A DNA stretch of 64,000 bases from positions 62,160-126,159 of the IMG/VR virus record IMGVR_UViG_3300007504_000003; one strand, given 5' to 3'. The number at the start of each line of letters is the position of its first letter. Position 1 is the first letter of the stretch. Below the pieces are notes generated by a model, which was not told the origin of the DNA, made no database searches, and saw only the letters and a program-made list of their open reading frames with translations. Of the stretch, positions 499 through 60,147 are shown one piece after another. This DNA comes from a virus. A program made the translations under genes and the position numbers.

Positions 499-1623
499 AT
501 GAAGGATTACCCGCCCTCTCGTCTTGTAGCCTCTCGTTGGTTGGTTGCATCCAAGTCGAAGTACCGATCCGTTTTGCGGCGGGGTCGCTCTCGCGTGGAA
601 GCCGCCTACCGGCAGGATGATTGGACTGCGGCTGCGGCTGCCTATGAGCAGGCGGCTTCGGCTCTCCGTCCCCTCGGGGGACTTCTGGATGGGGTTACCG
701 TCGAGCGGCAGAGTGAGCGGAGGAAGCTGAAGAACGTCCGCCGGAACCTGTCTCTGATCAAGCGGTATACGGCTCCTGGCTTCCTCCGAGATACCGAGTA
801 TCAGACCGCCTATTGGGCTTGGAGTAGCTGGGAGACGCTAGAAGATGCCGTGAAGGCTGTTCTGAGAGTCTGGGAGCGAGTGACCGGGTACCAGAGCTTG
901 ACTCGCTCCTTCCAGCACGGCCCTTTCACGGTTGAGAATCACTACGGCTACCGTGAGGAGGAATTGGCGGCACCCTTATCGCTCCTCTCAGGAGCGATGG
1001 ATCAGATCCGCTCCCGGGGGTTTGAGGAGGTCTTGTACGGGGTCGTTCAAATAGTGAGCCCGAAGAGCGGGGGGTTCTGTGGGAGGTACTTCAAGAATGG
1101 GGACTTCCTTCAGATCAACGCGGATTGCCAGTACCGCTTAGGGGCTGTTCATACGGTGGTCCACGAGCTAGGTCACCGGTTCTGGTTCCAGAAGATGACG
1201 TCCGCACAGCAGAAGGCATATGACGACGCCTATTCGGGTACAGCAGGCGTTGTGTTCTCTCTGGGGGACCGGGAGGACATGTGGCAGGCGTTCAAGGAAG
1301 CCGGGTACACCCTCCGAGGTGCTCATCGGCGGTTGAGGAACCCCGCCTTGCGGGAGCATCTCTCGGATTATGTCCGGGAGAGGAGGAAGGGGTTGTTGAT
1401 CGTCCCGGACCCGCGGACGGGGTTCATGGAGGCCCATGCTCAGAGAGCTTTCGTGGTCCCTTCTGTGAGAAACTTCTTCCTGGGCCGCCCCGTCTCCGTG
1501 AGTGATTACGCTGAAACAGGCGGGGTGACGGAGGATTTCGCTGAGGTCTTCGCGTTCTTCTGCACCGGGAAGAGGGTTGACGCAAGGGCTCTGGAACGCT
1601 TCCGGGACGCGACCGGCCGCTAG
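499..1623 (+). CDS. zincin-like metallopeptidase, putative virion cargo protein
   Basis: HELGH zinc motif plus downstream SDYAETGGVTEDFAEVF; N-terminal RLVASRWL tag. Confidence 0.7.
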   Translation: MKDYPPSRLVASRWLVASKSKYRSVLRRGRSRVEAAYRQDDWTAAAAAYEQAASALRPLGGLLDGVTVERQSERRKLKNVRRNLSLIKRYTAPGFLRDTEYQTAYWAWSSWETLEDAVKAVLRVWERVTGYQSLTRSFQHGPFTVENHYGYREEELAAPLSLLSGAMDQIRSRGFEEVLYGVVQIVSPKSGGFCGRYFKNGDFLQINADCQYRLGAVHTVVHELGHRFWFQKMTSAQQKAYDDAYSGTAGVVFSLGDREDMWQAFKEAGYTLRGAHRRLRNPALREHLSDYVRERRKGLLIVPDPRTGFMEAHAQRAFVVPSVRNFFLGRPVSVSDYAETGGVTEDFAEVFAFFCTGKRVDARALERFRDATGR

Positions 1624-1646
1624 TTCCTCTATGTGGGGAGGCTAGC

Positions 1647-3146
1647 ATGGAAACCCTCGCCCACGCTGAAGCCTCTGACGGCTCGCTCCCTATCATGGAG
1701 CCCCTCCACAATGTGCGGGAGGTGGCTAAGCAACTCATCCTGTTGGAAGACCACCTCTTTCATCCTGAGCGGCACTGCGAGGATTGCATCACCAAGCATC
1801 TCCTGACCGCTGAGGCGTTCGCAGAGGAGGCCCGTTCTCTCGACGTGGCGGGAGAGTTTTCCGAGCTGCTGAACCCTCTCCCAGGGGTCTTGAGGCGGCT
1901 GTTCCGAATGTTTCAGGAGGAGAAGCCGGTGCAGGAAATCGCTCAAGCAGCTCGCAAGTTGAGGAAGCGATTGATGCCGGAGACCCTCAAGGTGCGGGTG
2001 GCCTCCCGTTGGTTGTCGGCGGAGCGAGGTCGTCAGGTTTCGGACCTGCCTAGGTTTTTGATGGTGGGTAACCGCATTCTGAACAACTTGAACGCTTTGA
2101 AGCGGGCTGAGGCTGAGGGCCGCCATGACCGGTCAGTAGTCTGGGCTCTCAACACGGATTGGTCTAGCATTGTCTCAGCGGGTCGGCGGTGGTCAGAGGA
2201 GGTGATTGAGACTCGGGCTACTCCCAGGGGTAAGGCGAAGAAAATTGAGCTGGCGGTTCGGGCTTTCCAGGTCAGCCGTACTCGCGACTCAACGAAGTGG
2301 CTCAAGAAGAACCGTCGCCACATTGAGTTGCTGATTGAAGCGGAGAGGTGGCCCCTTCGCTCTGAAGCTTCCGACGATTTGGCGAGGCAGTTCCAGCAGG
2401 GTTCGTTTACCGTTCACAACACCATCCACGCTGAAGGAAACAAGCTTCAGGCTGTCCGGGATATGATCTCTGCTGCGTCGAGGGCCCTCCCCAGGACGGG
2501 GCTCGCAGGTGCTCAGAGCATGGCTTACGGCGATCTGTTGATTGTGGGTCAGATTGGCCGGGCGTCCTGGGCTGCGTGGTACACCCCGTCGAAGGACAAT
2601 ATCGCGATTCGCCCCTTCATTCGGGGGATTTCTGCGGCTGATGCTGCTCGGCATCTTGTCCATGAGATTGGACACCGGTATTGGCATAAAGTCATCGCCC
2701 GAGATCGGGATCTGGTCCGGGCGTGGCACGCTTACCACCGGAGGCTGGGGAGCCAGCCGGTAGACCCTGTGGCTTTTCCGGGGGTTGGGGAACAGCTCCC
2801 TCACCCGATCCACATGAAGATTCTTCCTCCAGGGAGAAAGCGTAGGAAGAGGGTGCTTATTCAACCCACGGTCAAGGCTCGGGGCTCTGAGTGGGTTGAG
2901 TTTGAGGAGGCTCCCGGGGTTCGCTATAGCGTGATTTCAGTTCAGCGGATTCTGGAGAACACTGGTCGGACAGGTCGTTTCCCCTCTCCGTATGCGGCCA
3001 CGGATCCGCAGGAGCATTTCTGCGAGGCGTTTTCCTTCAAGGCGTTTGGAGAACTTTCCCCTGAAGGGGTGGAAGCGTTTGACAGGATCTTTTTGGGCCG
3101 CACGGCGGCGGATCGGGTAGCCGATCGCTGGAGTGAGCAAAGCTAG
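1647..3146 (+). CDS. two-domain protein with zincin-like metallopeptidase (paralog of 499-1623)
   Basis: HEIGH and SPYAATDPQEHFCEAF; shares FQxGxFTVxN...HE[LI]GHR[FY]W with the previous ORF; RVASRWL internally and RVADRW at the C-terminus. Confidence 0.7.
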   Translation: METLAHAEASDGSLPIMEPLHNVREVAKQLILLEDHLFHPERHCEDCITKHLLTAEAFAEEARSLDVAGEFSELLNPLPGVLRRLFRMFQEEKPVQEIAQAARKLRKRLMPETLKVRVASRWLSAERGRQVSDLPRFLMVGNRILNNLNALKRAEAEGRHDRSVVWALNTDWSSIVSAGRRWSEEVIETRATPRGKAKKIELAVRAFQVSRTRDSTKWLKKNRRHIELLIEAERWPLRSEASDDLARQFQQGSFTVHNTIHAEGNKLQAVRDMISAASRALPRTGLAGAQSMAYGDLLIVGQIGRASWAAWYTPSKDNIAIRPFIRGISAADAARHLVHEIGHRYWHKVIARDRDLVRAWHAYHRRLGSQPVDPVAFPGVGEQLPHPIHMKILPPGRKRRKRVLIQPTVKARGSEWVEFEEAPGVRYSVISVQRILENTGRTGRFPSPYAATDPQEHFCEAFSFKAFGELSPEGVEAFDRIFLGRTAADRVADRWSEQS

Positions 3147-3150
3147 CTGG

Positions 3151-3162
3151 TATCCCTTCTAT
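3151..3162 (+). promoter_or_regulatory. putative late promoter motif
   Basis: TAT-ccctt-CTAT, one of about 15 copies listed under findings. Confidence 0.55.
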
Positions 3163-3197
3163 GGACTCCGGGGGTCGAGTCCTCTCGGAGTTGTAGG

Positions 3198-3860
3198 ATG
3201 CCCAAGGTCAAAGACCCGCTTGTCCGTCAGGCGGCGGATCGTCTTCGGGAAAGCACAAAGAAGGTGATCCGGGCTTTCGTGGAGCAAAAGCCTGGAGATA
3301 GTCGTGCTCTGAGGTCAGATGGACGGTCGTTGTGGAAGCGATCTTTTGGGGAGAGCAAGTTCGCAGTCTGGAGAGCGGGTCGAATCCTCATCCTGAACGA
3401 CGAGTCCTCTAAATTTGACGACCGGGTGATCCGGTACATCATCCGGCTTGCAGGAAAGCCAACCGTAGCTTTCGAGTACGACCGCGGGGGTGCCCACCCC
3501 AATATGAAGCTGACGTTTGAGATAGTTTGGGATGACGTAATCGGCCGAGAGGAGTACAAGGCTCGTCTCGGTGCCGTCATGACCGATGGGGGTGAGCGAG
3601 GGCTCGTGGGTTGGGTGGACTACTCCAAATATCAGGGGGAGTACACGATCGACCACGTTCATGTGGTGCCTGAGTATCGCCGTAGCGGGGTCGCCACTGC
3701 CTTGTATAAGGAGCTGTTCCGTCGGGAAGGGATCACTGTCCGGGACCTGGGCCCGAGCGCGAGGACCGACCTGGGGCAGAAGTTTCGGGAGAATGCCCGG
3801 CTCGCAGCAGCACGCCGGGTCGCTGCCCGTTACCTAGGGGGCAGTCGTGAGTCGGGATAA
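3198..3860 (+). CDS. GNAT-family acetyltransferase domain protein
   Basis: IDHVHVVPEYRRSGVATALY acetyl-CoA-binding motif A; C-terminal RVAARYL tag. Confidence 0.8.
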   Translation: MPKVKDPLVRQAADRLRESTKKVIRAFVEQKPGDSRALRSDGRSLWKRSFGESKFAVWRAGRILILNDESSKFDDRVIRYIIRLAGKPTVAFEYDRGGAHPNMKLTFEIVWDDVIGREEYKARLGAVMTDGGERGLVGWVDYSKYQGEYTIDHVHVVPEYRRSGVATALYKELFRREGITVRDLGPSARTDLGQKFRENARLAAARRVAARYLGGSRESG

Positions 3861-6558
3861 AGCGGCCATTCCTTCCGTTGAGAAGGTGGTGCGTTGTTAT
3901 CGTGAGACTCAGGCGAAGACGTTCAAGATTGAGGTGGGTGACCCGATCTGGTACGGGAAGTACAAGAATAAGAAGGGGATCGTCAAGGGCTTCAAGGGGA
4001 ACGACAAGGGAGATACGATCGTTGTGATCGAGCCTGACCCGAAGGGGCGGAAGCAGAACAAGGAGCTGAAGCTCTTCAAGATTCGGCCTCGGAAGGCCCA
4101 TGTCTCCCCTGAGGTTTACGTTGAGGGGGACCCCGAGGATTACCTCCGGTTCTTCCTCCGTGATGGGAGGATGGGAGAGAATTTGGCCCGGGTCTGGATT
4201 GTCCAGATGGATCCGGAGGGCTACTGGTACCTGGATAGCGCGAAGGCGTATATCCGGGGTCAGGGCTTCGGGGTTGAAGCCTACATGGCCGCGATCAAGT
4301 ATGCGACGGAGCATGGGGCCGGGCTCGTCTCGGACGATGAGGCGTCAGCCGCCGCGAAGCGGGCTCGGCAGGATCTCCGGAAGCGAGGGGTTCAGTTTAC
4401 TCCGGGCTACGTTTTCAAGACGCACCGGTCCTCCCATATGTTCGGGACCGCTCTTCCGGTGGACGCCTGGGATGTTCGGTCGGCGGTTCTGATGAAGTCT
4501 CGGCGTGGTCCTGCGTACCCGATCCGCCAAGCTGGCTCCGCCCCGGCTTGGGGTGCCGACAGTGTGGACGCTTTCCAGTACCTCATTCGGGGGGAGTACG
4601 ACGAGGGGTTGGAGTGGGTCGAGAAGTGGGGTCTGAAGTCCTCTCAGTGGGAGGAAATCGAGGGTGGGGATGGACCCCAGGTGGCTTTGGTGAATGACGC
4701 CTTCAACGACCTGGATGACTTCATCAGTCGTCACAACGACAGGCTCCACTACCGTCACAAGGACCAGGAAGCTCGGGATTGGGCTCCGCTTGGGCGACAT
4801 TTCAAGGAAGCAGGTTCGGGTCTACCTGTGGGCTGGACTCTTCGCCACAAGTGGTATGGCCGGACGCTCATGGTGGAAATCTGGGATGACCAGAAGGATG
4901 AGCAGGTTGTCCTGATGGCGACCCGAGAGTCTGTTTCTTCCATGTCGTCAGGATGCCAGGAGGATATCCGTGCTCTCGCGGCTCAGACAGGAGCCTCGGA
5001 GGCTGACGTGCTCGTTGTACGGTCGGCCCATGCCGGGGACCACCAGGGTCGGGGGTTTGGCCGGATGGTGTATGAGCGGGCTCTGGGAGAGGCTGCGGCA
5101 GCTAATTTGATCCTGGTCCCTGATGACTGCGAGGAAGCCCGGCGGACGAGCCCCTCAGCGGCTCGGGTCTGGGATTCTCTTCGTCGCAGGTATCCGAATG
5201 ACGGGGACGCTTTCTGGGGCCGGAAGGCCAGTGAGGACGTGATGGGTCGCACAGCGTCGTATGGGGAGCAGTTGTTTATGTTGCGGCCTGGGCAGGCGTG
5301 GTCACCCAGGTTGATGAACAACGTCACCGTGTCCACCTCCCGGTCGGATATGAACAAGCCCCGCGGCGGGTTCTGGACGTCCACGTATGCGGGGGGTCGG
5401 TCGGACTGGCTGGACTGGTGTGATCGAGAGGGCTTCCGTGGCGGCAACCAGGGGGTTCTATTTGTCCCTGGGGGCAGCGTCTTCCATATCCGCGATCTGA
5501 AGAGCTATCTCCAGCTCGCTGCGGCTCATGGTCGGGTTCATCGCGACGCCATGTTCGGGGACACGGAGAACCTGATCGATTGGAATTCTGTCGCTCTCTA
5601 CTACGACGGGGTTCACTTCACTCGGGAAGCCCTACGGGACCGTGCCTTATCCGAGTACCTCTATGGGATAGATGCGGAGTCAACGATCTGGTTCAACCCT
5701 CGGGTTCTCCAGTACAAGGGGCTCGTAGATATCCAGTCGCGGTGTCGGGTGAGAGCCGCCCGGGTTGCTCAGCGGTGGCTGGAGGGGGCTCGTCCAATTC
5801 CCTTGAACCCGGCGATGGTGGATAAGGTCGTTGCTCGGGTGGTGCGGAAGATCATTTCGGGGCTCTCCGTGTTCCGGCGAGATCGAGACGATTCTCTCTA
5901 TTACGTCCGGGGCTTTGACCCGAGGAAGTGGGGCGGTGAGGTCGCGGTCTACGAGACGACCGATGTTCGGGGTCAGCGGATTAATGTCCCTGTCCGATTG
6001 AAGACAGAGCAAGAGCTATCGAATCACGTTCGGCGGTACATCGTCGGTGGAGCGGTCAGCGCCCGGTATTCCCACGGGGAAAAGTTTGGTCGTAAGTGGC
6101 AGATGGTGATCAAGCTGAATTCAGCGAGGACTCCGAATGAGATTATGGGGGACTTGAATCGGGTTACCCAGGAGGTCCGCTCCGTGGTCATCCACGAGGC
6201 GACTCATTTGCGAGACCTCCTCCGTCTTCAGTCCCCGGAAGATCGGGAGACGAGTCAGCGTGACCCCGACGCCTATTACAACCTCCCCCATGAAGTTCGG
6301 GCGTTCATGCAGCAGGTCGTCGCGGAGGTGCGGGAGGGTTTGGAGGACGCCGCCAAGTCAGGGGCTCGCTGGTACTGGCGAGCCCGGAAGATCGACAAGA
6401 GGGTCTCCAGCGGCTTTGTTATGCGGGCCTTGGAGCAGGCTCCGACATGGAACCGGGTGAGGCCGTTCATGACTGAGGAAAACCGCCGGCTGATCCTCAA
6501 GGCGGTCGCGACGTCTCTGACGGATTGGGATCCTTTCTCCATCGGGGTCCAGGTATGA
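3847..6558 (+). CDS. multidomain polyprotein: KOW/SH3-like, two GNAT-like, KPxGGxWTS domain, HExxH zincin
   Basis: IRGQGFGVEAY and HQGRGFGRMVYE GNAT motifs; KPRGGFWTS...YDGVHF...DAES; HEATH; RKAH, RKAS/RTAS and RVAQRWL fall between the domains. Confidence 0.65.
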   Translation: MSRDKAAIPSVEKVVRCYRETQAKTFKIEVGDPIWYGKYKNKKGIVKGFKGNDKGDTIVVIEPDPKGRKQNKELKLFKIRPRKAHVSPEVYVEGDPEDYLRFFLRDGRMGENLARVWIVQMDPEGYWYLDSAKAYIRGQGFGVEAYMAAIKYATEHGAGLVSDDEASAAAKRARQDLRKRGVQFTPGYVFKTHRSSHMFGTALPVDAWDVRSAVLMKSRRGPAYPIRQAGSAPAWGADSVDAFQYLIRGEYDEGLEWVEKWGLKSSQWEEIEGGDGPQVALVNDAFNDLDDFISRHNDRLHYRHKDQEARDWAPLGRHFKEAGSGLPVGWTLRHKWYGRTLMVEIWDDQKDEQVVLMATRESVSSMSSGCQEDIRALAAQTGASEADVLVVRSAHAGDHQGRGFGRMVYERALGEAAAANLILVPDDCEEARRTSPSAARVWDSLRRRYPNDGDAFWGRKASEDVMGRTASYGEQLFMLRPGQAWSPRLMNNVTVSTSRSDMNKPRGGFWTSTYAGGRSDWLDWCDREGFRGGNQGVLFVPGGSVFHIRDLKSYLQLAAAHGRVHRDAMFGDTENLIDWNSVALYYDGVHFTREALRDRALSEYLYGIDAESTIWFNPRVLQYKGLVDIQSRCRVRAARVAQRWLEGARPIPLNPAMVDKVVARVVRKIISGLSVFRRDRDDSLYYVRGFDPRKWGGEVAVYETTDVRGQRINVPVRLKTEQELSNHVRRYIVGGAVSARYSHGEKFGRKWQMVIKLNSARTPNEIMGDLNRVTQEVRSVVIHEATHLRDLLRLQSPEDRETSQRDPDAYYNLPHEVRAFMQQVVAEVREGLEDAAKSGARWYWRARKIDKRVSSGFVMRALEQAPTWNRVRPFMTEENRRLILKAVATSLTDWDPFSIGVQV

Positions 6559-7505
6559 GCAGTATCACCGCTGGTACCTGGGGCTACGAGCCCTGGGCGG
6601 GCGACGCTCAGGAGGACAACCTGAGCGCGGTCCTGAAGACCTTGAAGAAGGGGCCGGCATACAAGAAGCTGCGGGATCTCCGGCCAAAGGCGAAGGATCT
6701 GAAGGACGAGTCCCCGGTTCGCCAGATCCTCCTCCCCTGGGATTGGGTGGGTGAGGTGTACCTCGTCTCAGACGCCCTCCAGGGTGTCCCTGAGAGCCTT
6801 GTGAAGCACGCCCTGGAGTTCGTAGAGGGGATCGAGGAACACCCCGCCTACGAGGAATTCCTGGCTTCTTGGAAGGAGCCTGAGGAGTTCCCAGCTATGC
6901 GTGAGCGGGTGGAGGCGGACCTCCGTCAGGCGTTGGATTTCAGCCGTGATGGGAGGGTCAGGCTGACTATCCCTCCTATGGGTCGGCTGGCGAAATACCG
7001 GCAACCACCGCTAGGCCCCCGCCAGGATCTTGTGGACAAGATTCGTTACCGAGTGCGGTCCAACAGTGATGGGATTGTCATCGCTCTCTATTCTGGGAGG
7101 CGTTCAGCGGGAGCGATGGTCGCGCACTGGAAGAGGTTCCCCGGGGACCTTTGCGTCTCGGATATCGGGATGCTCTCGATCACGGTGACTCCCACGCCCC
7201 AGCGGATCTTGCAGGTGTATACGTCAGGCTTGGAAGAGGGGTTCCGAGGGCTGGGATATGGTCGGGCGATGTATCAAGCGTTGATGGCGGAGGGCTGGAA
7301 GCAGGAGGGCCGCCCGTTTTTCCTGACGCCGATGTGGTGTAGCTATGGATCAGGCACGTCGGCTATGGCGATGCGAGTCTGGGATTCGCTGGCTCGACAG
7401 TATCCTTCCAGCGGCAAGGTGATTGCGGTGACGGGTCCCGTGAAGCCGGGTGTCCGGACTTCTGCGGGCGTCGTAGCGAATCGCTGGTTGGGGCTTCATG
7501 AGTGA
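6555..7505 (+). CDS. GNAT-like acetyltransferase domain protein
   Basis: GFRGLGYGRAMY and RVWDSLARQYP (matches RVWDSLRRRYP of the previous ORF); ATG overlaps upstream stop (ATGA); C-terminal RTSAGVVANRWL. Confidence 0.7.
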   Translation: MSSITAGTWGYEPWAGDAQEDNLSAVLKTLKKGPAYKKLRDLRPKAKDLKDESPVRQILLPWDWVGEVYLVSDALQGVPESLVKHALEFVEGIEEHPAYEEFLASWKEPEEFPAMRERVEADLRQALDFSRDGRVRLTIPPMGRLAKYRQPPLGPRQDLVDKIRYRVRSNSDGIVIALYSGRRSAGAMVAHWKRFPGDLCVSDIGMLSITVTPTPQRILQVYTSGLEEGFRGLGYGRAMYQALMAEGWKQEGRPFFLTPMWCSYGSGTSAMAMRVWDSLARQYPSSGKVIAVTGPVKPGVRTSAGVVANRWLGLHE

Positions 7506-10500
7506 GACCTGTCGGTCTGCGGGTGGCAGCAAGGTGCTCTTCTACATAGGGCATCGGCCTGCTCGACCTGTCCCGAAGCGGACCTCCTGGGTAGACCGGG
7601 GACAAGAGGGGCCTGATTGGGTCCGACCCTGGTTGGATTCCCCGGTTCAGGCTGGCGTCTTTCTTACGACCAACCCGTTTAATGTAGCGACAGAGCACGG
7701 CATCATGGGCCACGTCTATGCCTATCAGGTCCCTCGGTGGGTCCTGAAGGAAGCCGGTGGTCTCCAGCGGTATGACCACGCGACCGAGGTGCTGATTCCG
7801 GAGCCCTTGTGGGAGCACGTCAAGTTTCTGGGGAAGTCTCTGGACAAGGGGGCTTTCAGGCAGCGGGTTTTAGAAGGCCAGAATGAGCGAGCCTTCGCGC
7901 CTCATAATCTGGCTGTAGGGCTCGGTGAGGCAAGAGAGGTTTACATGAGGCCGAAACCCCAGAGGGTTGCTTTCCGGTACCTTCAGTCTTCTGATATCGC
8001 GGAGCGGGTCGCCGCTCGTTACCAGAAGAAGAAGGAAGTTCCGAAGGCGAAGGGCGAGGGGACCACCACGGTGTACGAGTACAGCGAGGGTCAGGTTCAG
8101 CACCGGAATCGGGAGAAGGCGAAGCGGATTGAGAAGCTCCGCACGGGAATCGGGAAGCTGCGAGCCAAGGTCAAGGGAGACCTCACCTCGTCAGACGATA
8201 AGACCCGTTTGACAGCCCTGGCTGTGGCTTTGATGGACGAGACCTATGAGCGGGTTGGGAATGACCAATCGGCTAAGGAGGGCCATTTCGGGGTCACTGG
8301 CTGGCAAGCCAAGCATGTGAAGTTCAGCGGGGGGAAGGCGACCATTTCCTACGTTGGAAAATCCGGTGTCCGTCAGAAGAAAGAGGTCACCACTGCGAAG
8401 GTGGTCTCGGCACTCAAGCGGGCGATGAAAGGCAAGTCCGGGACCACGCAGGTGCTCTGCGAGGGGGATGACTGTCGGGTTCTGGCTCAGGACGTCAACG
8501 GCTACTTGAAGCCTTTCAACATCACGGCGAAGGATATCCGTGGGCTCCACGCCAATGAGGAAGTCAAGACCCGACTGAAGGAAGTCCGCAGGAAGGGCGG
8601 CAAGCTCCCGACCGATCCGAAGAAGAAGGCTGAGAAGCTCAAGGCGGAGTTCAAGGAAGCCTTGGAAGCCGCCGCTTCGGCTGTCGGTCACCAGCCCGGC
8701 ACCCTCAAGAGTCAGTACCTCGTACCTGGAGTAGAGCAGACCTTCCTGAAGGATGGCTCTGTTTCCGTGAAGCACGCCTCCAGCCGGGTCGCGATTATCA
8801 ATCTCAACCACGCCACGGATGGGGAGAAGGGAGACCACTCCCTACGTGGAGTGGCTGGGTTGATCTCCAGTCTCACCTACTATGAGCGGGCTCTGGTTCA
8901 GGATATGCTGGTTCACGATCAGCCAATCCGGAAGGGGAAGGAGGGGTATTCTCTTCGCGGCCACCCCGTCATGTCTGATGCTGTAGGTGAGCTGGTCGCC
9001 GCGGGCTATCTGGAGGGGGAGGGGGAGGTCCGGCTCTCGGGGTTGTTCCTGGCGAAAAAGAAGCTCTACAAGAAAGAAGCTTCCCTGGACCGGGCGGCGG
9101 AGGCTTTTCTGTCTTCTGCCCCGGAGAAGTGGGGTCGGGCAGATCTCCTGGCTTTCACTCGGGTCGATCCCTGGTTCCAGGCGATGACTCTCCCCTCACG
9201 AGTCGCAGCGGCGGGTGAGTTGTTTGGTCGGGTTCTCCGAGCGGGTGTCATGGATCGCTCACATCCCCAGGCGGTAGCCTGGGTGGAGTCGTTTTTTCAG
9301 CGGCATCCAGCTCTGCGTCGCTACCAGGGGATTCCGGTTCTCCACGTCTCCTCGCCGGGGTCGGGTTCGCATCCCGAGGCTCGTCAGACCTATCGGGGGA
9401 TTGAGCTGTATCCGAAGTTCTGGGGTCACTCCACGGAAATCCAGGACTTCATCTTCGCGCATGAGATCGGTCACGCGGTTCGATCGGAGTGGGGCTTGGC
9501 TTTTGGCGTGGCTGCTGCTGCTCTTGGGATTGACCCGTGGGATACACCGAATCTCCCCTTCGGTCAGTTCAATCAGGACGAGGCCTTCGCGGATTCCTTC
9601 GCCAGTTATTTCACGGATGGGGATGTAGGTCGGAGGTATCCGGCGTGGAGTCGGCTCGTAGAGGAGGGGCTCCGGATTCGGGTAGGGAAGAAATCCCCCG
9701 CGGACAAAGAGGATGCCGAGGTAGAGCGGCTGGTGAGGCCCTCGCCTAAGAAGAAGCCGCCGCGGAAGGACAAGAGACGAGAGCAAATTCGTGAGGAGGA
9801 TCGGGACACGGACGGAGACCGGGACACCAAGCGAGACAAGGATATGAGCCTCAACTACAAGGATAGCGTCAGCCGGGTGGCGGCTCGTTATCTGGAGGCC
9901 CTCCGCGTCAAGACGGTTCGGGTCTTGAATACGGATACCGGGAAGATGGAGAACATCTCTCCGGAGCGGTTCCAGAGGAACCCGGGGAAGTACAAGCTGT
10001 GGCGGGACATGTCCCCCGAGGAAAAGGACAAGAATAGGCTCCGTAAGAAGCCTCCGGTTGAGGAGACTCCCCAGGAGGAAGAGGCGGAAGAAGCTCCTCA
10101 GGAAGAGGAGGGAGGAGAGGAGGGGGAAGAGGAGGAAGAAGAGGCCCCCCAGGAAGAAGAGGCCCCCCAGGAGGAAGAGGTTTCCCAGGAGGAAGAGGTT
10201 TCCCAGGAAGAAGAATCTACGAGTGACCCGGACACGGAGGACTACGAGGATGTGTCTTCCCTGCTGGAGGAGATCCCGGAGTCTCTGACTCCGGAGCAGA
10301 AGGCAATTCGCCGGAGCGAGTTGGTTGAGGCTGCCTTGTCCGTGATGACGAACAAGTTGGCGGCTGCTGAGAAGGAAGTGGCTGAACTGGAGGAGTCCCT
10401 GGATTCCCTTTTGGCTGACCCTGCCACGACCAGTAAGCAAAAGGCGTCTGCGAAGCAGAAGCTCCAGGCAGCGGTGAAGGGCCGCAACGAGATGAAGAAG

Positions 10501-11535
10501 GAGGTGTCCCGCCTCCAGAGCCGTCGGGACACCCTGGAGTCCGAGCGGCAGCAGAGAGAAGACGCTGCGGCTGCAAAGAAGATGAAGTCTGAGCGAGCCA
10601 AGGCTCTACAGGACTTGGTCGGTCAGGTCGGCGGCATGGTGGATCGTCTGGATGATCCTGGCGGGGATTTCACTGACCCGCTGGAGGTCGGTCAGATGTT
10701 CTACAAGGAAATCTCTGGTCTGACCCCAGCAGAATCTCAGAGCCTCGTCGATCAGATCCAGGACCGAGTCCGGGAGCTTCCGGGAGAGGAGTCCGTTCTC
10801 CGGGCAGGGTATGTGGCTGCCCTCGACGCGGTGGAGGTTGCGTCTATCGTTCGTGGTCAAGAAGTCGCCATTGAGGGGCGTTCCCCGCTGATGCAGATGG
10901 CTCACCGTCTTCTGAAGACGGTCGCGAAAATCCCTGGAAAGGAGGTTGACCTTCTTGGAGTGGGTCGCGGGGTCGGGTCAGGCTCCTGGGTTGGGATTTC
11001 GGACCAGATTAAGAACCTCTCCCATGAGGATCTGGTCCGGGTGGTAGGGGCTGACTCGGACCAACACCCCTTTTCCGGCATGGCGAAGTTCTTGCTGGAC
11101 TCTGAGGCTCCTGATGAGCGGAAGGCGATGGCTCGCCAATGGATGCAAGATGCCGCCTTGGACGCTTTTGGTTTGCTCTCCCCGGTGGCAGAGGAGATCG
11201 TTCAGGACAGTCGGGATCTGGGTTCCGGAGCGGGTGAGGAATTGGTGATAGAGGTGCAGGAGGCATACGCCGGCACCTGGGCTGCCGTGGAGGGTGGGGG
11301 CGACAGCGACGACCAAGAAGAGGCCGATCTTTACTCTTTTGAGGACCCTCTTCAGGAAACCCTGGGGAGCCCGGAGAAGCAGGAGGTCTCGCGCTTGGAT
11401 AGCCTTCAACGTGTTCTGGACATGCTCCAGAAGCGGTTTGAGGGGGTTCGTACACGGACTATGAAAGTAATCGAGGCCCTCCTCATTAAGGGGGATCCGG
11501 ACGTGGGTCCGGTCTCGTTCAACCGAGCAACCTAA
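7498..11535 (+). CDS. 1345-aa polyprotein: ART-like domain, DNA topoisomerase IB core, zincin, acidic low-complexity and helical regions
   Basis: TopIB motifs YERVGN, YVGKSG, AKDIRG, VGHQPGTLKSQYL; HEIGH with DEAFADSF; GVFLTTNP...EVLI; RVAFRYL, RVAARYQ and RVAARYL at domain borders. Confidence 0.75.
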   Translation: MSETCRSAGGSKVLFYIGHRPARPVPKRTSWVDRGQEGPDWVRPWLDSPVQAGVFLTTNPFNVATEHGIMGHVYAYQVPRWVLKEAGGLQRYDHATEVLIPEPLWEHVKFLGKSLDKGAFRQRVLEGQNERAFAPHNLAVGLGEAREVYMRPKPQRVAFRYLQSSDIAERVAARYQKKKEVPKAKGEGTTTVYEYSEGQVQHRNREKAKRIEKLRTGIGKLRAKVKGDLTSSDDKTRLTALAVALMDETYERVGNDQSAKEGHFGVTGWQAKHVKFSGGKATISYVGKSGVRQKKEVTTAKVVSALKRAMKGKSGTTQVLCEGDDCRVLAQDVNGYLKPFNITAKDIRGLHANEEVKTRLKEVRRKGGKLPTDPKKKAEKLKAEFKEALEAAASAVGHQPGTLKSQYLVPGVEQTFLKDGSVSVKHASSRVAIINLNHATDGEKGDHSLRGVAGLISSLTYYERALVQDMLVHDQPIRKGKEGYSLRGHPVMSDAVGELVAAGYLEGEGEVRLSGLFLAKKKLYKKEASLDRAAEAFLSSAPEKWGRADLLAFTRVDPWFQAMTLPSRVAAAGELFGRVLRAGVMDRSHPQAVAWVESFFQRHPALRRYQGIPVLHVSSPGSGSHPEARQTYRGIELYPKFWGHSTEIQDFIFAHEIGHAVRSEWGLAFGVAAAALGIDPWDTPNLPFGQFNQDEAFADSFASYFTDGDVGRRYPAWSRLVEEGLRIRVGKKSPADKEDAEVERLVRPSPKKKPPRKDKRREQIREEDRDTDGDRDTKRDKDMSLNYKDSVSRVAARYLEALRVKTVRVLNTDTGKMENISPERFQRNPGKYKLWRDMSPEEKDKNRLRKKPPVEETPQEEEAEEAPQEEEGGEEGEEEEEEAPQEEEAPQEEEVSQEEEVSQEEESTSDPDTEDYEDVSSLLEEIPESLTPEQKAIRRSELVEAALSVMTNKLAAAEKEVAELEESLDSLLADPATTSKQKASAKQKLQAAVKGRNEMKKEVSRLQSRRDTLESERQQREDAAAAKKMKSERAKALQDLVGQVGGMVDRLDDPGGDFTDPLEVGQMFYKEISGLTPAESQSLVDQIQDRVRELPGEESVLRAGYVAALDAVEVASIVRGQEVAIEGRSPLMQMAHRLLKTVAKIPGKEVDLLGVGRGVGSGSWVGISDQIKNLSHEDLVRVVGADSDQHPFSGMAKFLLDSEAPDERKAMARQWMQDAALDAFGLLSPVAEEIVQDSRDLGSGAGEELVIEVQEAYAGTWAAVEGGGDSDDQEEADLYSFEDPLQETLGSPEKQEVSRLDSLQRVLDMLQKRFEGVRTRTMKVIEALLIKGDPDVGPVSFNRAT
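10066..10212 (+). repeat. Glu-rich tandem EE[AV][PS]QEE repeats inside the 1345-aa ORF
   Basis: repeated gaggaagaggc/tttcccaggag units visible in the DNA. Confidence 0.8.
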
Positions 11536-11613
11536 TCTTCTAAAGGGGCTCGGGAGTTAGGTCTGCGGGTACTCAGACCGCCCTCCGTAAATAACTGCGG
11601 GTAACTTTGGCGG

Positions 11614-11625
11614 TATTCTCCTTAT
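11614..11625 (+). promoter_or_regulatory. putative late promoter of the head operon
   Basis: TAT-tctcc-TTAT; GGTAACTTT also present at 11600. Confidence 0.6.
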
Positions 11626-11694
11626 AGCCCTCTCTATAGGTCAGACAGCAGTAAACCCCTGCTTGCGTATGAGCATGACCTGTGGAGATAGCAA

Positions 11695-12204
11695 ATGGCG
11701 AAGCTGACCCTTGCGGGTGCTAAGCGAGTCACGGCTGATATGGAGCGGATCGCTGAGGTTGTTCAGCGTGAGTTTGCTGTTCTCGGGATTCCCGAGAAGG
11801 TGGCGATGGATTACGCCTATCGGACAGACCTCCTTTCGGATCGGATTGAGAAGGTCGCAGCGGACAACGCAGCGTCTATCGCTCCGGATGAGATCGGGGA
11901 GATCAAGCCCGGTCCTGAGGAGATGGAGTCGGACGAGTCCTATATGAAGGGGCAGTTCACTCAGGTGGACAACGAGGAGCTGAGCCGCAAGCAAGAGTCG
12001 GGTCGGCTTGCTCGCCTCAAGGAGCTACAGGCGTCCCTGGCGACACTCCAGGGGGAGATTCAAGTTCTCCAGGCCGGTTCAGAGGATTCTGAGAAGAAGG
12101 AAGCTGCGGCGGAGCCTGTTGAGGAGAAGGAAGCTTCCACTCCTCCCACGGAGAAGGAGGCTTCCGAAGCCCCTTTTAGCCACGGCTACAACCTCTTCGC
12201 CTGA
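11695..12204 (+). CDS. putative head assembly/internal head protein
   Basis: acidic, KVAA/KEAA/KEAS sites, directly upstream of the protease operon. Confidence 0.55.
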   Translation: MAKLTLAGAKRVTADMERIAEVVQREFAVLGIPEKVAMDYAYRTDLLSDRIEKVAADNAASIAPDEIGEIKPGPEEMESDESYMKGQFTQVDNEELSRKQESGRLARLKELQASLATLQGEIQVLQAGSEDSEKKEAAAEPVEEKEASTPPTEKEASEAPFSHGYNLFA

Positions 12205-12213
12205 GTTCTACGG

Positions 12214-12729
12214 ATGGTCCGTTCCGCCCTCGATTACCAGTCTCTTGCTCGCGATTTCAGCGAGGGAGACATGGTGTCCGTGGTCCGGACCCCAAACTCT
12301 CGGGGTCGGGTGACCGAGGTCTACCAGGGGATCGGGATGGTTGACGTGAAGTTCCCCACGGGGACTATCCGTTACCCGGTGGAAGACCTCATGCGGCTGG
12401 ACCAGAGCAACGCGGAGGTGGCTCCTCCGAAGGACCGGGAAGCGTCCCGTGCCCCCAACCCGGAGAGGGTTGCTAAGGCGTTTGCTCGTAAGGCGATCTA
12501 TTGGGCTTCCCGAGATCGCCAGTACCGGGCAACCAGGGGCGAGCAAGACTCTCGCAGCTACGCCTGTCCTCGGTGCGGTTCGTCCCTGAAAGCCATGATC
12601 TACAAGCGGGAAGAGGGCCGGAGCCAGCGGCTCTATGGCTGCTCTGGGCACGAGTGCTCGTTCTTGATCAAGCCCACAGCCATCCATGGGTGTCACCTCA
12701 ATGGTTGTGATGAGGAGGCTGGGCTCTGA
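12214..12729 (+). CDS. hypothetical head-region protein (SH3/KOW-like N-terminus, C-terminal Cys zinc ribbon)
   Basis: EGDMVSVV...GRVTEVY; CPRCG...CSGHEC; REAS...ERVAKAF. Confidence 0.55.
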   Translation: MVRSALDYQSLARDFSEGDMVSVVRTPNSRGRVTEVYQGIGMVDVKFPTGTIRYPVEDLMRLDQSNAEVAPPKDREASRAPNPERVAKAFARKAIYWASRDRQYRATRGEQDSRSYACPRCGSSLKAMIYKREEGRSQRLYGCSGHECSFLIKPTAIHGCHLNGCDEEAGL

Positions 12730-15700
12730 TGGCTTTCCGTAAGTTCGCCAACGCCAGGGTCACACACCCGCGAATCTCTTCCCGGGGCTGGGGTCGGGTG
12801 CGGACTGCGGCTCGGAAGAAGGGCGGCGCGTCCCCGATTGCCTCTCATGATCTCGCCTCTCGGGCGTCAGAGATTCTCGGGGAGCGGTTCGACCCTGATC
12901 GGTATCTCCTCTCCCACGCTACGATCGTGGCTTCGGTGGATGTGGAGGAGGTCCAGGGCGCCAAGCTGGGCAAGGTGCGGGTGGGCAGCAAGACCATCGA
13001 TCGTCGATGGGGTGCTTACTACATCAATCCGGCGTGCTCTGATCTGGTCAACAACAACGGGGATGCGTGGTCGAGGAAGGTGCTCCTGGCGAGCTACCCC
13101 ACGTTCATTGGTTCCCACAACTTCTGCTTCGCGGCTGGTACCGGCATTCTCCTGTCGGATGGCACTTACAAGGCTATCGAGGAAGTCCAGGTGGGGGACC
13201 GTGTGGTAACCCATACGGGTGCTTGTCAGGCAGTAACTCATAAGTTCGAGCGGGATTACGAAGGGGACATTCACGCTATCGGATTCGACCGATTTAAGGA
13301 TCCGGTGTTGGTGACGGGCAACCATCCCTTCCGAGGGATTCAAGTCTCTTCGGCACCCGTCAAACCACGGTCAGGTTCCAAGGCGTCCAGCACTACCCGT
13401 TATTACAAAGATCAGGTGGCTAAGGCTCTACGGGGCGACAAGCACTCTCTCAAGGATTTCAAGGCTGAATCCACTTGGGTTCGTGCTGATCAGATGCGGG
13501 TAGGGGACCGGGTTCTGGGTCCCGTCCGAGAGGCTGGCACTCATTCGGATCCGGGCCTAGCTGAGTTGCTAGGGTACTACTTGGCTGAGGGATGCCCTTT
13601 GTCTCCGAGTTCGGATCAGGGCTTCGTGCTCGCCTTCGGGCACCACGAAGTTGATCTGGCTCGCCGTGCTGAGTCTCTGGCTTACGCAGTGCTGAACCCA
13701 AGCTCCGTGACGGTGGCTACGGTTCAGACCGGCATTCAAGTGCGGGTATACTCCGCGGAGGCATCCCGTCGAATGGTGTCCCTGGGCGGGCACCGGGCTG
13801 CGGATAAGCGGCTGTCGGAAGAGGTTTTCTCCTGGGATGAGGAGTCCTTGCTCCGTCTCCTGGCCGCTTGGTTGGCTGGGGACGGGAACCTCCATAAGGC
13901 CACCCTTCGTCTGCGTGGAACCACCACCTCTGAAGCTCTCGCTCAGCAAATGCAGCGGGTGGCTGAGCTGGCTGGTGTCAAGTCTTTTGTTATGTTTGAG
14001 CCCCAGAAGATTGGGGAAGTCCAGAGTCGTGTTGTGATGACCATCGGGGGCGAAGATAGGTCCTTTGATGTAGTTCCTCGTCACCACGTCTGGACGCTGG
14101 TTGTCTCCAAGGGCTCTACTTCGCAAGTGGCTTCGGCAACCCCAAGGTGGGGCACCCCGTTGTTTGATGCGACGGCGAAGCGGAAGCGGTCGGAGTTGGC
14201 TTGGTGGGGTGGCTGCCGCACTCATCGAGTGGCTTCTAATGAGACTCTTCCTTTCCGTGGAAAGGTCTACAATATTGAGGTCGAGGGCGATCACAGCTAC
14301 GTTATCGATTACGGAATCGCAGTACATAACTGCGAGCATGTCCAGGTAGAGGAGCTGTCCAAGGGCAGGATTATCGACGCCGCCGCGAGGGATATCGGTC
14401 GGTCGGTCTACGTGGATATTCTGGTCGCGACTGACCGGAAGCACACCCAGCTTGTCACGGATATTGAATCCGGGAAGATGGGCACGCTCTCGATGGGCTG
14501 CACAACCCAGACGACTCAGTGTACGAAGTGCGGCAACGTCGCCGTGGATGACACGGATACCTGCGACTGCATCCGGTACCACAAACTCGATACCTTCTAC
14601 GACAGTCAAGGTCAGCGTCGAGTCATCGCGGAGCTGTGTTTCCCTCCTGGCATCCGAGTCTCAATCGGAGATGGGAGTCGGGTAGCCATTGAGGATCTCC
14701 AAGTTGGGGATGTGGTTCTCTCCCACACGGGGCACCGACGTGAGGTCGTTGAGATTTTCGAGCGGGACTTTGATGGTGATCTGGTAGCCTTGGACTTGGT
14801 GGGTCTCCCGCAAACGCTACGGAGCACCCCCAACCACCCCTTCTGGGTTATCAGCCAGAATGATGTGTGTGCCTGTGGTTGCGGCATCAAGCTTAAGAGC
14901 GTCCGCAAGACCTTTGCACGGGGGGAATATACTCGTAAGTATGCCCCAGGGCACAACCCTACGAATGTCGTGTCCTTGGATGCGCCCTCTTTTGACTTTG
15001 TCGAAGCCGGGAACGTGAGGGTTGGGGACATGGTGGCGATGCCGGCCCCGCAGGGTGTGGTGGTTCCGGAGGATGTGGATGAGGACAGGGCACGGCTCCT
15101 GGGATGGTTCTTGGCTGAGGGCTGCTACATCAAGAAGGATGGGCAGCGGGTGGGCATTCAACTCACCCTTAATGCAGAGGATGAGGTGGGTGTTGCGGAA
15201 GCCCTGGCTTCCCTCCTGAGCAAGTGCTTTACTCCCGAGTTCAACCTCCAGAAGGCCACGAAGGTCCGGCTGTTGGAAGCTCTGGCGATCCCCGCAACGA
15301 CTCGACAGGTTTCTCGTAGATTGGGGTTGCGAGAGAAGACAATTCAACTGGCTTTGTCGGGGCTCAGGTCAGAGGGACTCGTTTCGAGTCGGAGGCTTCG
15401 TGCTTCGGAGAAGACGCAATTCGGGGCCTCCGGGACCAACGCTCTCGTGTGGGAGCGGCTGAGTGGTGCTCCGGCTGATTGGTTTAATCTAGCCCGGGTT
15501 CATTGCTTTGACCGGGTTGCGGAGCCCGGCAAGAAGTTGGTCGTCTGCTATACGAACCGAAGTGCTGCCGACTGGTTCTATAAGCACGCCGGGGAGTATT
15601 CCGGTTCCAAGAGGCTCTCGGAGGATGCAATTCTCTGGCCCAAAACCCTGCAAGCATCGATGCTTCGATCTTACCTCTGGGGGGACGGCACCGTTGACAC

Positions 15701-16790
15701 CCGAGGTCGCCATTCTGTGTCGTCCGTGTCGGAGACCCTGATCAGCCAGATGCAAGTGGTGGCTGCTCGGTGTGGTTTCTGGACCCGACGGCAAGTGATT
15801 TTCGAGGGTCAATGTGTAGAGCTTCAGCAAGTCGTCAACGGGACAGCGGTGCCTGTTGGGTCTGACGGATTCCGTGCTCGTCATGAACTGCACATCCAGC
15901 CTTCTGATGAGGCCACGGCGTTTTTCGGATTGACTGAGGTTGGTAGTCGAGGTTTGACCCCGGCATGGCGTACCCATGAGGGGTACATGCTGTACCGGGT
16001 CCGGGATGTGTGGACGGAGTCCTATAAGGGGAAGGTTCACAACATCGCAGTGGACACCGATCATTCGTATCTGGCGGAAGGGATTGCCGTACATAATTGC
16101 GGGCATCATTCCCTGGATGACACTGGCGGAGTGGTGTTCATTGAGGCTTCCTGGGTGGGGAATCCTGCGTTCAAGGGAGCCGTTCTCCGGAACGTTCTTT
16201 CTCCTACTCAGGCGATTCCCCACAACAAGACTCTCCAAGATGTGCTCTCCTCTCCTCCCCCGACCTGGACTGAGGGGGGGATGCCGCGAGCGGCGGCTCT
16301 AGCCTTCGACTTCGGTGATCCGGAGGATGGCGAGGAAGAGCAGGATTCTCCGAAGTCCCCTGCGCGTCCCTTGGACAAGACCAAGGAGAAGCTCAAGGAG
16401 AAGCTCATCAAGGATGTTCGTGAGGACATTGAGAAGGATTTGGAGGACGAGAAGCCTCCATCCTCGGATGAAGTCCACACCAACGACAATCTTCACAAGC
16501 AAGCTCAGGAGCGGGTAGAGAGGGTTCTCCTCCGTACCGCGAGTTCCGAGACCGATCTCATCAACAAGGTCGCTCTTCTGGATGCTGAGTTTGGCTGTGT
16601 TCAGCCTCGGGACACCTACCTGACTGCCCTCCGGGTTGGAGGGCAGGCATACCGCGACAACCCGGCTCGCTTCCTCTTGGCGTGTCAGGATCACACGGGA
16701 CGCCGCTTTGGTATCCCAGAAGTCAAGGTGTTCCGACGCCTTGGAAGTCTCCTCTCCCTGCTGGAGAGCCCCCCCAACAAGACCCCCTAG
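12729..16790 (+). CDS. prohead (maturation) protease precursor containing two inteins; about 464 aa after splicing
   Basis: spliced extein reads SHNF|CEH...GTLSMG...AEL|CGH...FIEASWVGNPAFKGA (His/Ser pattern of HK97-like proteases); lies before scaffold and capsid genes. Confidence 0.75.
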   Translation: MAFRKFANARVTHPRISSRGWGRVRTAARKKGGASPIASHDLASRASEILGERFDPDRYLLSHATIVASVDVEEVQGAKLGKVRVGSKTIDRRWGAYYINPACSDLVNNNGDAWSRKVLLASYPTFIGSHNFCFAAGTGILLSDGTYKAIEEVQVGDRVVTHTGACQAVTHKFERDYEGDIHAIGFDRFKDPVLVTGNHPFRGIQVSSAPVKPRSGSKASSTTRYYKDQVAKALRGDKHSLKDFKAESTWVRADQMRVGDRVLGPVREAGTHSDPGLAELLGYYLAEGCPLSPSSDQGFVLAFGHHEVDLARRAESLAYAVLNPSSVTVATVQTGIQVRVYSAEASRRMVSLGGHRAADKRLSEEVFSWDEESLLRLLAAWLAGDGNLHKATLRLRGTTTSEALAQQMQRVAELAGVKSFVMFEPQKIGEVQSRVVMTIGGEDRSFDVVPRHHVWTLVVSKGSTSQVASATPRWGTPLFDATAKRKRSELAWWGGCRTHRVASNETLPFRGKVYNIEVEGDHSYVIDYGIAVHNCEHVQVEELSKGRIIDAAARDIGRSVYVDILVATDRKHTQLVTDIESGKMGTLSMGCTTQTTQCTKCGNVAVDDTDTCDCIRYHKLDTFYDSQGQRRVIAELCFPPGIRVSIGDGSRVAIEDLQVGDVVLSHTGHRREVVEIFERDFDGDLVALDLVGLPQTLRSTPNHPFWVISQNDVCACGCGIKLKSVRKTFARGEYTRKYAPGHNPTNVVSLDAPSFDFVEAGNVRVGDMVAMPAPQGVVVPEDVDEDRARLLGWFLAEGCYIKKDGQRVGIQLTLNAEDEVGVAEALASLLSKCFTPEFNLQKATKVRLLEALAIPATTRQVSRRLGLREKTIQLALSGLRSEGLVSSRRLRASEKTQFGASGTNALVWERLSGAPADWFNLARVHCFDRVAEPGKKLVVCYTNRSAADWFYKHAGEYSGSKRLSEDAILWPKTLQASMLRSYLWGDGTVDTRGRHSVSSVSETLISQMQVVAARCGFWTRRQVIFEGQCVELQQVVNGTAVPVGSDGFRARHELHIQPSDEATAFFGLTEVGSRGLTPAWRTHEGYMLYRVRDVWTESYKGKVHNIAVDTDHSYLAEGIAVHNCGHHSLDDTGGVVFIEASWVGNPAFKGAVLRNVLSPTQAIPHNKTLQDVLSSPPPTWTEGGMPRAAALAFDFGDPEDGEEEQDSPKSPARPLDKTKEKLKEKLIKDVREDIEKDLEDEKPPSSDEVHTNDNLHKQAQERVERVLLRTASSETDLINKVALLDAEFGCVQPRDTYLTALRVGGQAYRDNPARFLLACQDHTGRRFGIPEVKVFRRLGSLLSLLESPPNKTP
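13125..14330 (+). mobile_element. intein 1 (402 aa) with LAGLIDADG homing endonuclease
   Basis: starts CFAAGTGILLSDG, block B VTGNHPF, LLGYYLAEG and LAAWLAGDG, ends VYNIEVEGDHSY...VHN followed by Cys+1. Confidence 0.93.
14637..16097 (+). mobile_element. intein 2 (487 aa) with LAGLIDADG homing endonuclease and HTH insertion
   Basis: starts CFPPGIRV, STPNHPF, LLGWFLAEG and LRSYLWGDG, ends VHNIAVDTDHSY...VHN followed by Cys+1. Confidence 0.93.
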
Positions 16791-16800
16791 GAGTCTACTC

Positions 16801-18117: not shown

Positions 18118-18305
18118 TTTGATTGCGTCCCCCTGGGGCGGCGAGTTTCGCCTCAGGGGAGCGTGAGCCCCCTCGGGATGGGCTGAAAGTCTCGATAACA
18201 TGTAAATACGACAAACATGTATAGGTGAACCCGGTCGGTCTGAGCGGGTGAATCAAACTCAACCCCCTCTCCCCTGTAAACAGGGAGCACGAGCCCGGAG
18301 AAATC

Positions 18306-18968: not shown

Positions 18969-18981
18969 GGAGGGAGACACA

Positions 18982-44071: not shown

Positions 44072-44083
44072 TAGGACCTCTAT
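44072..44083 (+). promoter_or_regulatory. putative late promoter of the fibre gene
   Basis: TAG-gacct-CTAT. Confidence 0.55.
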
Positions 44084-44244
44084 AAGGGGATCCCTATAGC
44101 GACAGCCCATCCTCCGTGATTGTCGATTGGAAGGAGGAGCGAGGACCAGCTTTCCGCTGGGCGGCCTATCCCCTCGCCTGATTGGAAGGCCCCGATGAGG
44201 GGTCCGCCCAGAACCTTCCGCACGACTTCGCGGAGAAGATAAAC

Positions 44245-48708: not shown

Positions 48709-48722
48709 GTGATCTGACCTGA

Positions 48723-48801
48723 CGGGGGCTCCGGCCACGGAGCCCCCGCAGAACCACGGAGCCCCCGGTGAGCCTACAAAGTAGAGCGCGCCGGGGGCTC
48801 C
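48723..48801 (+). terminator. stem-loops after the fibre gene
   Basis: cgggggctcc/ggagcccccg (48723-48748) and ggagcccccgg/ccgggggctcc (48758-48801); no U tract. Confidence 0.5.
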
Positions 48802-60075: not shown

Positions 60076-60103
60076 GTATACGACCACCCCTGAAAAAGTT
60101 ACC
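60076..60103 (-). promoter_or_regulatory. ECF-like promoter motif
   Basis: GGTAACTTT-N11-TCGTATAC. Confidence 0.65.
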
Positions 60104-60147
60104 TCGATAGATTGGTTATTTTCAGGGAGGGTAATTTGGGAGTATCC

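Follow-up and report, generated by a model that had tools for sequence, protein, structure and literature searches.

Why should a virus attach the same short peptide to otherwise unrelated enzymes, and where would such a label send them? The question is raised by a 64,000-nucleotide stretch of viral DNA, hereafter the window, that forms the second half of the 126,159-bp linear virus contig IMGVR_UViG_3300007504_000003 (contig positions 62160-126159). In this DNA a peptide with the core pattern [RVLT]-V-A-x-R-[WY]-[LQS], hereafter the tag, recurs in zincin-like proteins, acetyltransferases and a topoisomerase IB (TopoIB) protein. An interpretation made from the letters alone, which we call the sequence-only reading, had proposed that the tag is a head-targeting and/or cleavage signal that lets the phage load enzymes into its head as polyproteins and cut them into modules. 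Here we describe a conserved peptide, for which the assembling head is a tentative destination. Coordinates are those of the window and features lie on the plus strand unless stated otherwise.

The tag is selected as a peptide

The pattern occurs 15 times in the 126-kb contig, always in a coding frame, with ten copies in the window and five upstream of it (contig positions 6136, 13466, 40605, 42523 and 44420). Scores on a matrix derived from the tag copies themselves were bimodal, the 15 copies lying at 18.7-23.5 bits, all on the plus strand and in frame, and the best off-frame matches at 16.0 and 15.4 bits. Ten of the eleven copies listed by the sequence-only reading were found where it had placed them, whereas RVAKAF at 12466 scored below 11 bits and was excluded. 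In 2000 composition-preserving, within-protein shuffles of the plus-strand open reading frame (ORF) set, VA.R[WY] was expected 0.68 times (maximum 5) and observed 13 times; for RVA.R[WY]L the corresponding values were 0.0035 and 8. The motif is therefore well above background, and a chance origin is excluded by the matrix scores together with the shuffle counts.

Synonymous codons vary among the copies at every position (four Val, three Ala, four Arg and four Leu codons are used), and the conserved object is therefore a peptide, not a DNA site; a DNA-level repeat or regulatory site is excluded on the same grounds. Alanine is enriched two residues before the core, extending it to A-x-R-V-A-x-R-[WY]-L. 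On a helix, the hydrophobic A, V, A, W and L of this sequence, spaced i, i+3, i+4, i+7 and i+8, would share one face, with the two arginines beside it. The tag is thus selected as a peptide. It is not mentioned in the literature that we searched on polyvalent proteins, jumbo-phage genomics and capsid targeting.

Tags lie at termini and in linkers, outside folded domains

Each of the six consecutive genes at 499-11535 carries one to three tags. The first (499-1623) encodes a 374-residue zincin-like protein with an HELGH motif and an N-terminal tag, LVASRWL (523-543; residues 9-15; 19.7 bits). Its paralogue, the next gene (1647-3146), encodes a 499-residue protein in which a helical N-terminal domain, a tag (RVASRWL, 1995-2015, residues 117-123), a zincin-like domain with an HEIGH motif and a C-terminal tail bearing a second tag (RVADRWS, 3114-3134, residues 490-496) follow one another. 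Then come a 220-residue GNAT acetyltransferase (3198-3860) with a C-terminal RVAARYL (3816-3836), a 903-residue multidomain protein (3847-6558; weak GNAT match, phrog_8582) with an internal RVAQRWL (5761-5781), and a 326-residue protein (6525-7505; weak GNAT match) with a C-terminal VVANRWL (7470-7490). The last of the six genes encodes a 1345-residue polyprotein (7498-11535) whose TopoIB domain (residues 201-405) is immediately preceded by two tags, RVAFRYL (7963-7983) and RVAARYQ (8005-8025); its third, RVAARYL (9874-9894), stands after a conserved SLNYK island and before a fast-evolving C-terminal module of 550 residues. The tenth copy, RVAARWL (51664-51684), lies in ORF 51331-52320 and would be N-terminal if translation started at MATRVAARWL.

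The domain labels of the sequence-only reading fared unevenly. The TopoIB assignment is solid (PF01028, 85.8 bits). Among the GNAT assignments, that of the 220-residue protein is above the Pfam cut-off (PF14542 and PF00583), and the other two are weak. The zincin label draws on the HExxH motifs, a weak PHROG peptidase match, and Foldseek matches of the zincin model that were all sub-threshold and all to zincins. For ART-like folds, none of the analyses that we ran gave support.

The copies in the contig begin 4-15 residues after a start codon, end 2-9 residues before a stop codon, or lie within a large protein or linker, which confirms the proposed placement at N-termini, C-termini and between domains. 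An AlphaFold model of the 499-residue protein, built from a nine-sequence alignment (mean predicted local distance difference test score, pLDDT, 78), is confident for both the helical N-terminal domain and the zincin-like domain. The model places both tags outside these domains, in helical segments (residues 116-132 and 486-499) that score less than 50 in pLDDT. Together, the placement and this model support a portable peptide that sits on unrelated enzymes outside their folded cores. We rejected the idea that the tag belongs to a conserved domain: the flanks are unrelated, and between orthologous large proteins only the tag and the short SLNYK island align. Beside the tags, no second conserved motif was found.

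The tag is retained at orthologous positions across a clade of huge phages

CheckV estimates the completeness of the contig at about 28%. Its capsid protein is 76% identical to that of LR745208.1, a 485-kb uncultured phage, 44% identical to that of Tunturiibacter phage Tunturi_5 and 40% identical to gp27 of Bacillus phage G, and dozens of relatives of 250-530 kb were found in IMG/VR. Judging by these identities and by the sizes of these relatives, the contig is a fragment of a phage-G-like huge phage. A megablast search of the region against GenBank phages returned no matches.

In a complete relative of 435,804 bp (G001), the pattern matches 30 times on the main coding strand versus five times on the other, and about 25 ORFs are tagged genome-wide. 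They include a C39-like peptidase (C-terminal tag), a second TopoIB protein (tags near the N-terminus and at residue 501), an HAD_SAK RNA-repair domain (C-terminal), a CPD/2H-like protein (N-terminal) and a SWIM protein (C-terminal). Orthologues retain the tag while the rest of the sequence diverges, as seen in the C39 tail, on the N-terminal side of the zincin, and at the N-terminus of a 104-residue protein that is tagged in LR745208.1 as well. In a 206-residue protein, for which ESM Atlas gave no useful match, the tag is N-terminal in our contig and C-terminal in G001. Homologues of the zincin module in metagenomic phages (P0002-P0004) start straight with the tag, and in one zincin homologue the order is TopoIB, tag, zincin. 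Five consecutive proteins are tagged in the JGI contig L141. A further relative, L143 (Logan SRR30872644, 2279-11380), has four copies (RVADRVF, RVAHRVL, LADRVL and LAYRVL) in which valine replaces the aromatic residue, giving the form R-V-A-x-R-V-[LF]; the whole lineage shares this change, a hint that tag and reader may have co-evolved.

Among some 600 metagenomic proteins, identity in the C39-like domain is 60-75%. Among the best 120 of these homologues, 66 carry a tag on the C-terminal side of the domain, and in 48 of the 66 it is separated from the stop codon by 2-9 residues, against two matches in 120 reversed-sequence controls. A comparison of 44 relatives at a greater distance took the protease gene described below as its anchor. 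Strict tags are rare in these genomes, the unique ones lying upstream of that gene in eight cases versus downstream in one, usually in a large protein that precedes the head operon and after the conserved SLNYK island. The tag is thus conserved at orthologous places and widespread in the clade.

Module fusion and fission argue against a cleavage site

In G001, the CCA-adding-enzyme-like, zincin and TopoIB modules are joined in a single 2493-residue protein with two tags. The homologous modules are split into separate genes in our contig, where each gene of the array is tagged, and the G001 orthologue of ORF 51331-52320 is split just downstream of its tag. This pattern of fusion and fission fits one label per polypeptide, as an address tag predicts.

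The same proteins bear on a different explanation, in which a phage peptidase that processes polyproteins would recognise or cut the tag; the prohead protease, the C39-like cysteine peptidase and the zincins are the candidates. Internal copies do stand at module borders, two zincins and one C39-like peptidase are among the tagged proteins, and the sequence Y-L-G occurs in several C39 tails. The leaders that C39 peptidases recognise are amphipathic helices. In addition, polyvalent proteins are predicted to be autoprocessed by such peptidases (Iyer et al., PMC5512222). A pure cleavage site would, however, be expected at every polyprotein junction, and the G001 protein has only two tags for at least four recognisable modules, so that some junctions are unmarked. 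Cleavage is unsupported, and with it the proposal that polyproteins are cut into modules at the tag. Most copies lie 2-15 residues from a terminus, where a cut would free nothing; for the terminal copies it would remove only 3-9 residues, without obvious use. Terminal tags are strongly conserved and are therefore not relics of gene fission.

The residues around the tag point the same way. Prohead protease gp21 of T4 cleaves after L/I-x-E. The published giant-phage consensus, that of the SPN3US prohead protease gp245, is A-x-E (PMC10052503), and no linked motif of this kind was found. Neither consensus has the form [KR]-x-A, and the suggestion that R-V-A serves as such a cleavage site is unsupported. 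Neither a Gly-Gly nor an x-x-Glu consensus follows the tag. Glycine directly follows it in two of the 15 copies here and in 14 of the 66 C39 tails, and many copies are C-terminal, unlike a double-glycine leader, which is N-terminal and ends in Gly-Gly or Gly-Ala at the cut site. We consider a cleavage site improbable.

Most tags of the contig lie among head genes

We next consider an address tag in its genomic setting. Nine of the 15 copies fall in the six array genes, which are tightly packed, co-oriented and situated between the portal gene and the genes for a gp19-like protease, a scaffold-like protein and the capsid protein, which bears out the claim that most tagged genes lie upstream of the protease. 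In gene order, the large terminase and portal genes, each with an intein, are followed by one for a 1247-residue protein with a 2H ligase match above cut-off and a weak LPD1 match (23.9 bits versus a cut-off of 27). A CCA-adding-enzyme-like protein follows, whose C-terminal part is encoded at 2-475 and whose N-terminus, upstream of the window, carries a degenerate tag, RIADLWL. After the six tagged genes come a 169-residue acidic protein and a 171-residue zinc-ribbon protein, then the putative prohead protease (12729-16790; two inteins, no tag), the very acidic scaffold-like protein (16798-18117; four D-P-D-E-A-L-L-Q-Q-M-L-A-E-E repeats), a 220-residue protein and the HK97-type major capsid protein (18928-19857; no tag). 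A promoter and terminator scan gave no signal above chance inside the tagged array.

The domains of the tagged and neighbouring proteins (zincin, GNAT and TopoIB, with the 2H ligase, weak LPD1 and CCA-like enzyme upstream) match the repertoire of polyvalent proteins, which is predicted to be packaged and injected (Iyer et al. 2017, PMC5512222). The tags and their flanks are basic, while the scaffold-like protein is extremely acidic. LLxxML-type repeats number four in this scaffold-like protein, with nine tags upstream, and two in that of a relative, L059, with four tags nearby; most relatives with few tags have one or none.

We infer for the tag a docking function, for its bearers a capsid destination, and for the scaffold-like protein the role of candidate reader. 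The tag would be a short linear docking peptide, A-x-[RK]-V-A-x-R-[WYF]-[LIV], able to form an amphipathic helix flanked by arginines, whose presence on the termini or linkers of unrelated enzymes would allow their recognition by one common reader. The likeliest destination would be the assembling procapsid, where the basic, hydrophobic tag could bind an acidic head-assembly component, the candidate being the scaffold-like protein with its E-A-L-L-x-x-M-L-A-E-E helices. In this way the phage would package peptidases, acetyltransferases and TopoIB, and its relatives RNA-repair enzymes as well, and deliver them along with the DNA. Three features make the head the leading destination: the genes that surround the tags in this contig and in distant relatives, the polyvalent-like repertoire and the complementary charge. 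Our tentative preference, at rather less than even confidence, is for a peptide that serves for docking or as an address wherever it stands in the protein, with the head as its leading destination. A more specific version would be a nine-residue encapsulation helix, portable to any protein and read by the acidic scaffold repeats or the capsid interior, that in huge phages of this clade loads some 15-25 enzymes of counter-defence and takeover, each encoded by its own gene, into the head, replacing a covalent polyvalent protein non-covalently; this we put forward as a conjecture that is on the whole rather unlikely.

Several observations weigh against a capsid destination. Most tagged genes are dispersed in relatives, and the roughly 25 of G001 are spread over 436 kb; G001, L141 and L143 have several tagged genes on either side of a phage GroEL gene, at a distance from the head module. 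The relation of scaffold repeats to tag number is drawn from only three related genomes, and G001 is rich in tags yet has only one or two scaffold repeats. The head region of phage G has no tag, and the GenBank phage set contains no cultured phage with a tagged C39 peptidase. The protease label depends on the homology of the exteins to phage G gp19, an annotated (head maturation protease, PMC12484599) but uncharacterised gene; no protease family was found for the gp19-like gene in Pfam and nothing in a PDB profile search, and its AlphaFold model is poor (mean pLDDT 55.8) and unfit for a fold search. Proteomics of phage G particles reports many non-structural proteins (PMC12484599) and, as the head region of that phage is untagged, is uninformative here.

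Dispersed tagged genes would fit another explanation, in which the tag docks the enzymes on a different common hub in the infected cell, without encapsidation. This might be an assembly of several enzymes for counter-defence or RNA repair, a platform for replication or transcription, or a compartment made by the phage. Peptides that bind hubs, such as clamp-binding motifs, are typically short and position-independent, occurring at N-termini, at C-termini and in linkers. The dispersed genes of G001 include those for the HAD_SAK, CPD/2H-like, TopoIB and SWIM proteins, and some tagged genes in our contig adjoin sigma-factor and clamp-loader genes. However, no candidate hub emerges, most tags of this contig sit in the head-gene block, and distant relatives carry the strict tag almost exclusively upstream of the protease gene; peptidases and acetyltransferases would also be unusual clients for a replication hub. 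On this balance an intracellular hub is rather unlikely, though a serious contender.

The genes around GroEL form a conserved block (L141:7554-18181; G001 73.5-84.6 kb; L143) that comprises a tagged TopoIB or zincin gene, GroEL, two small genes, a gene for a tagged 554-579-residue protein (G001 and L143), a tagged C39-like peptidase gene, a gene for a tagged 346-residue protein (L141) and, in L141 and L143, genes for a 671-residue protein and an SNF2 helicase. Our contig has a portion of this block near its beginning (contig positions 4161-8166), without GroEL. Since tagged genes flank GroEL in conserved order in G001, L141 and L143, the tag could instead direct new proteins to the phage-encoded GroEL-type chaperonin, for which there is a precedent in the N-terminus of T4 gp23, said to direct proteins to GroEL in the passage of PMC10052503 that cites Snyder and Tarkowski 2005. 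GroEL is, however, also present in G002, G003 and LR745208.1, relatives with few strict-pattern matches; as every complete relative encodes it, tag-rich or tag-poor, its presence or absence is uninformative. Tagged proteins of 42 to 107 residues would hardly require a chaperonin, the capsid protein, which is the classical phage client, is untagged, and the adjacency of the genes may merely reflect a conserved block. We regard this explanation as very unlikely, and return to a docking peptide whose leading destination is the head.

The tag resembles known targeting peptides without matching any of them

By analogy, these features suggest a portable targeting or encapsulation-type peptide that differs from known ones in its sequence and in its independence of position. 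Like the capsid targeting sequence (CTS) of T4 proteins IPI-III and Alt and the C-terminal capsid-targeting tail of the HK97 protease, the tag is a short portable peptide on unrelated proteins. In those phages the peptide puts proteins, including a protease, into the procapsid, whereas here packaging is a prediction from the genes. T4 also combines basic cargo with an acidic scaffold core and encodes cargo among its head genes. However, the T4 CTS is unrelated in sequence and stands strictly at the extreme N-terminus of its cargo, while the tag is found at either end or internally, and on about 15-25 proteins per genome. Moreover, the T4 CTS is removed by gp21 at L/I-x-E, and beside the tag there is no linked cleavage site, neither L/I-x-E nor A-x-E, nor any conserved Glu-based motif.

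A second likeness is to the cargo-loading peptides of encapsulins and the encapsulation peptides of microcompartments. These too are short, occur on unrelated enzymes at N- or C-termini or between domains, adjoin poorly conserved linkers, form amphipathic helices in microcompartments, and are read by the shell, which in encapsulins has the HK97 fold. The tag shares the general properties of such cargo peptides, being a short amphipathic helix outside folded domains, at a terminus or in a linker, on unrelated proteins. It differs in sequence, in belonging to a virus and not a cellular compartment, and in having only a candidate reader.

The enzymes themselves recall polyvalent proteins (Iyer, Burroughs, Anand, de Souza and Aravind 2017), with zincin metallopeptidase, papain-like peptidase, GNAT, 2H and LPD1 domains beside the portal gene, and effector domains typical of that class are encoded between the portal and protease genes. 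In polyvalent proteins the modules are covalently joined and anchored by MuF-type domains; here many of them are encoded by separate genes, each tagged, and Pfam scans of the array proteins found no MuF domain. No such tag motif is described for polyvalent proteins (PMC5512222).

Additional features of the contig and its relatives

Inteins interrupt three successive head-assembly genes, namely the large terminase (one), portal (one) and gp19-like protease (two) genes; those of the last give Hint and LAGLIDADG matches, and intein-bearing stretches lie at 12729-16790 of the window, L003:13499-16828 and L004:7419-10787. The ends of the scaffold-like protein are conserved (Y-E-N-G-D-T-S-x-W near the N-terminus and L-W-E-x-x-P-D-[IV]-S-x-V-F at the C-terminal end), while its middle, acidic or Gln-rich, differs among relatives and in our contig contains the four repeats. 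Directly after the capsid gene, a 633-residue ORF (20023-21924) has PHROG matches to HNH and LAGLIDADG homing endonucleases and to DNA methyltransferases, and is probably a mobile insertion within the head operon. Two long minus-strand ORFs, 16795-18201 and 44080-48738, whose products are rich in Gly, Val, Arg and Asp, were rejected as antisense artefacts of GC-rich plus-strand genes, the true gene at the former being the plus-strand gene 16798-18117.

At contig positions 42508-43259, a 42-residue ORF begins with a tag (MMREARVASRWL), and the two short ORFs that follow it partly match a single C-terminally tagged protein of 346 residues in L141; frameshifts may have disrupted a gene here, or it may have undergone rearrangement. 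The 17-nt word CCCCYGAAAAAGTTACC has only two occurrences in the contig. One, at contig positions 57537-57586, stands 62 nt before the gene for the 1247-residue protein, the first of the cargo array, and is followed by TATAAT; the other, at 60087-60110 of the window, is upstream of ORF 60112-60834, whose G001 orthologue bears a tag. The word may be a shared promoter or operator.

Finally, a second shared peptide, L-R-x-x-V-I-R-L-A...P-L-R-x-x-L-L, is found at 24973 and 32535. In LR745208.1 (L005 4893-5948, 13171-13575 and 48231-48653) it reads M-T-T-L-R-S-K-L-I-R-L-A-H-x-x-P-x-L-R-P-x-L-L-P-L-L-K and several small proteins carry it at the N-terminus or close by; one of these proteins is encoded between the scaffold and capsid genes.

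Implications for huge phages

A tag that works at either end of a protein or internally would be a useful tool for loading foreign proteins into capsids, and the modules found fused in some genomes and split in others offer a natural experiment on the evolution of polyvalent proteins. If it serves as an address label, the tag marks out the proteins that uncultivated phages of 400-500 kb send to one destination, and a plain sequence rule would retrieve such proteins from metagenomes. The tagged set of peptidases, acetyltransferases, TopoIB and RNA-repair enzymes would then probably be the first-strike arsenal that these phages inject.

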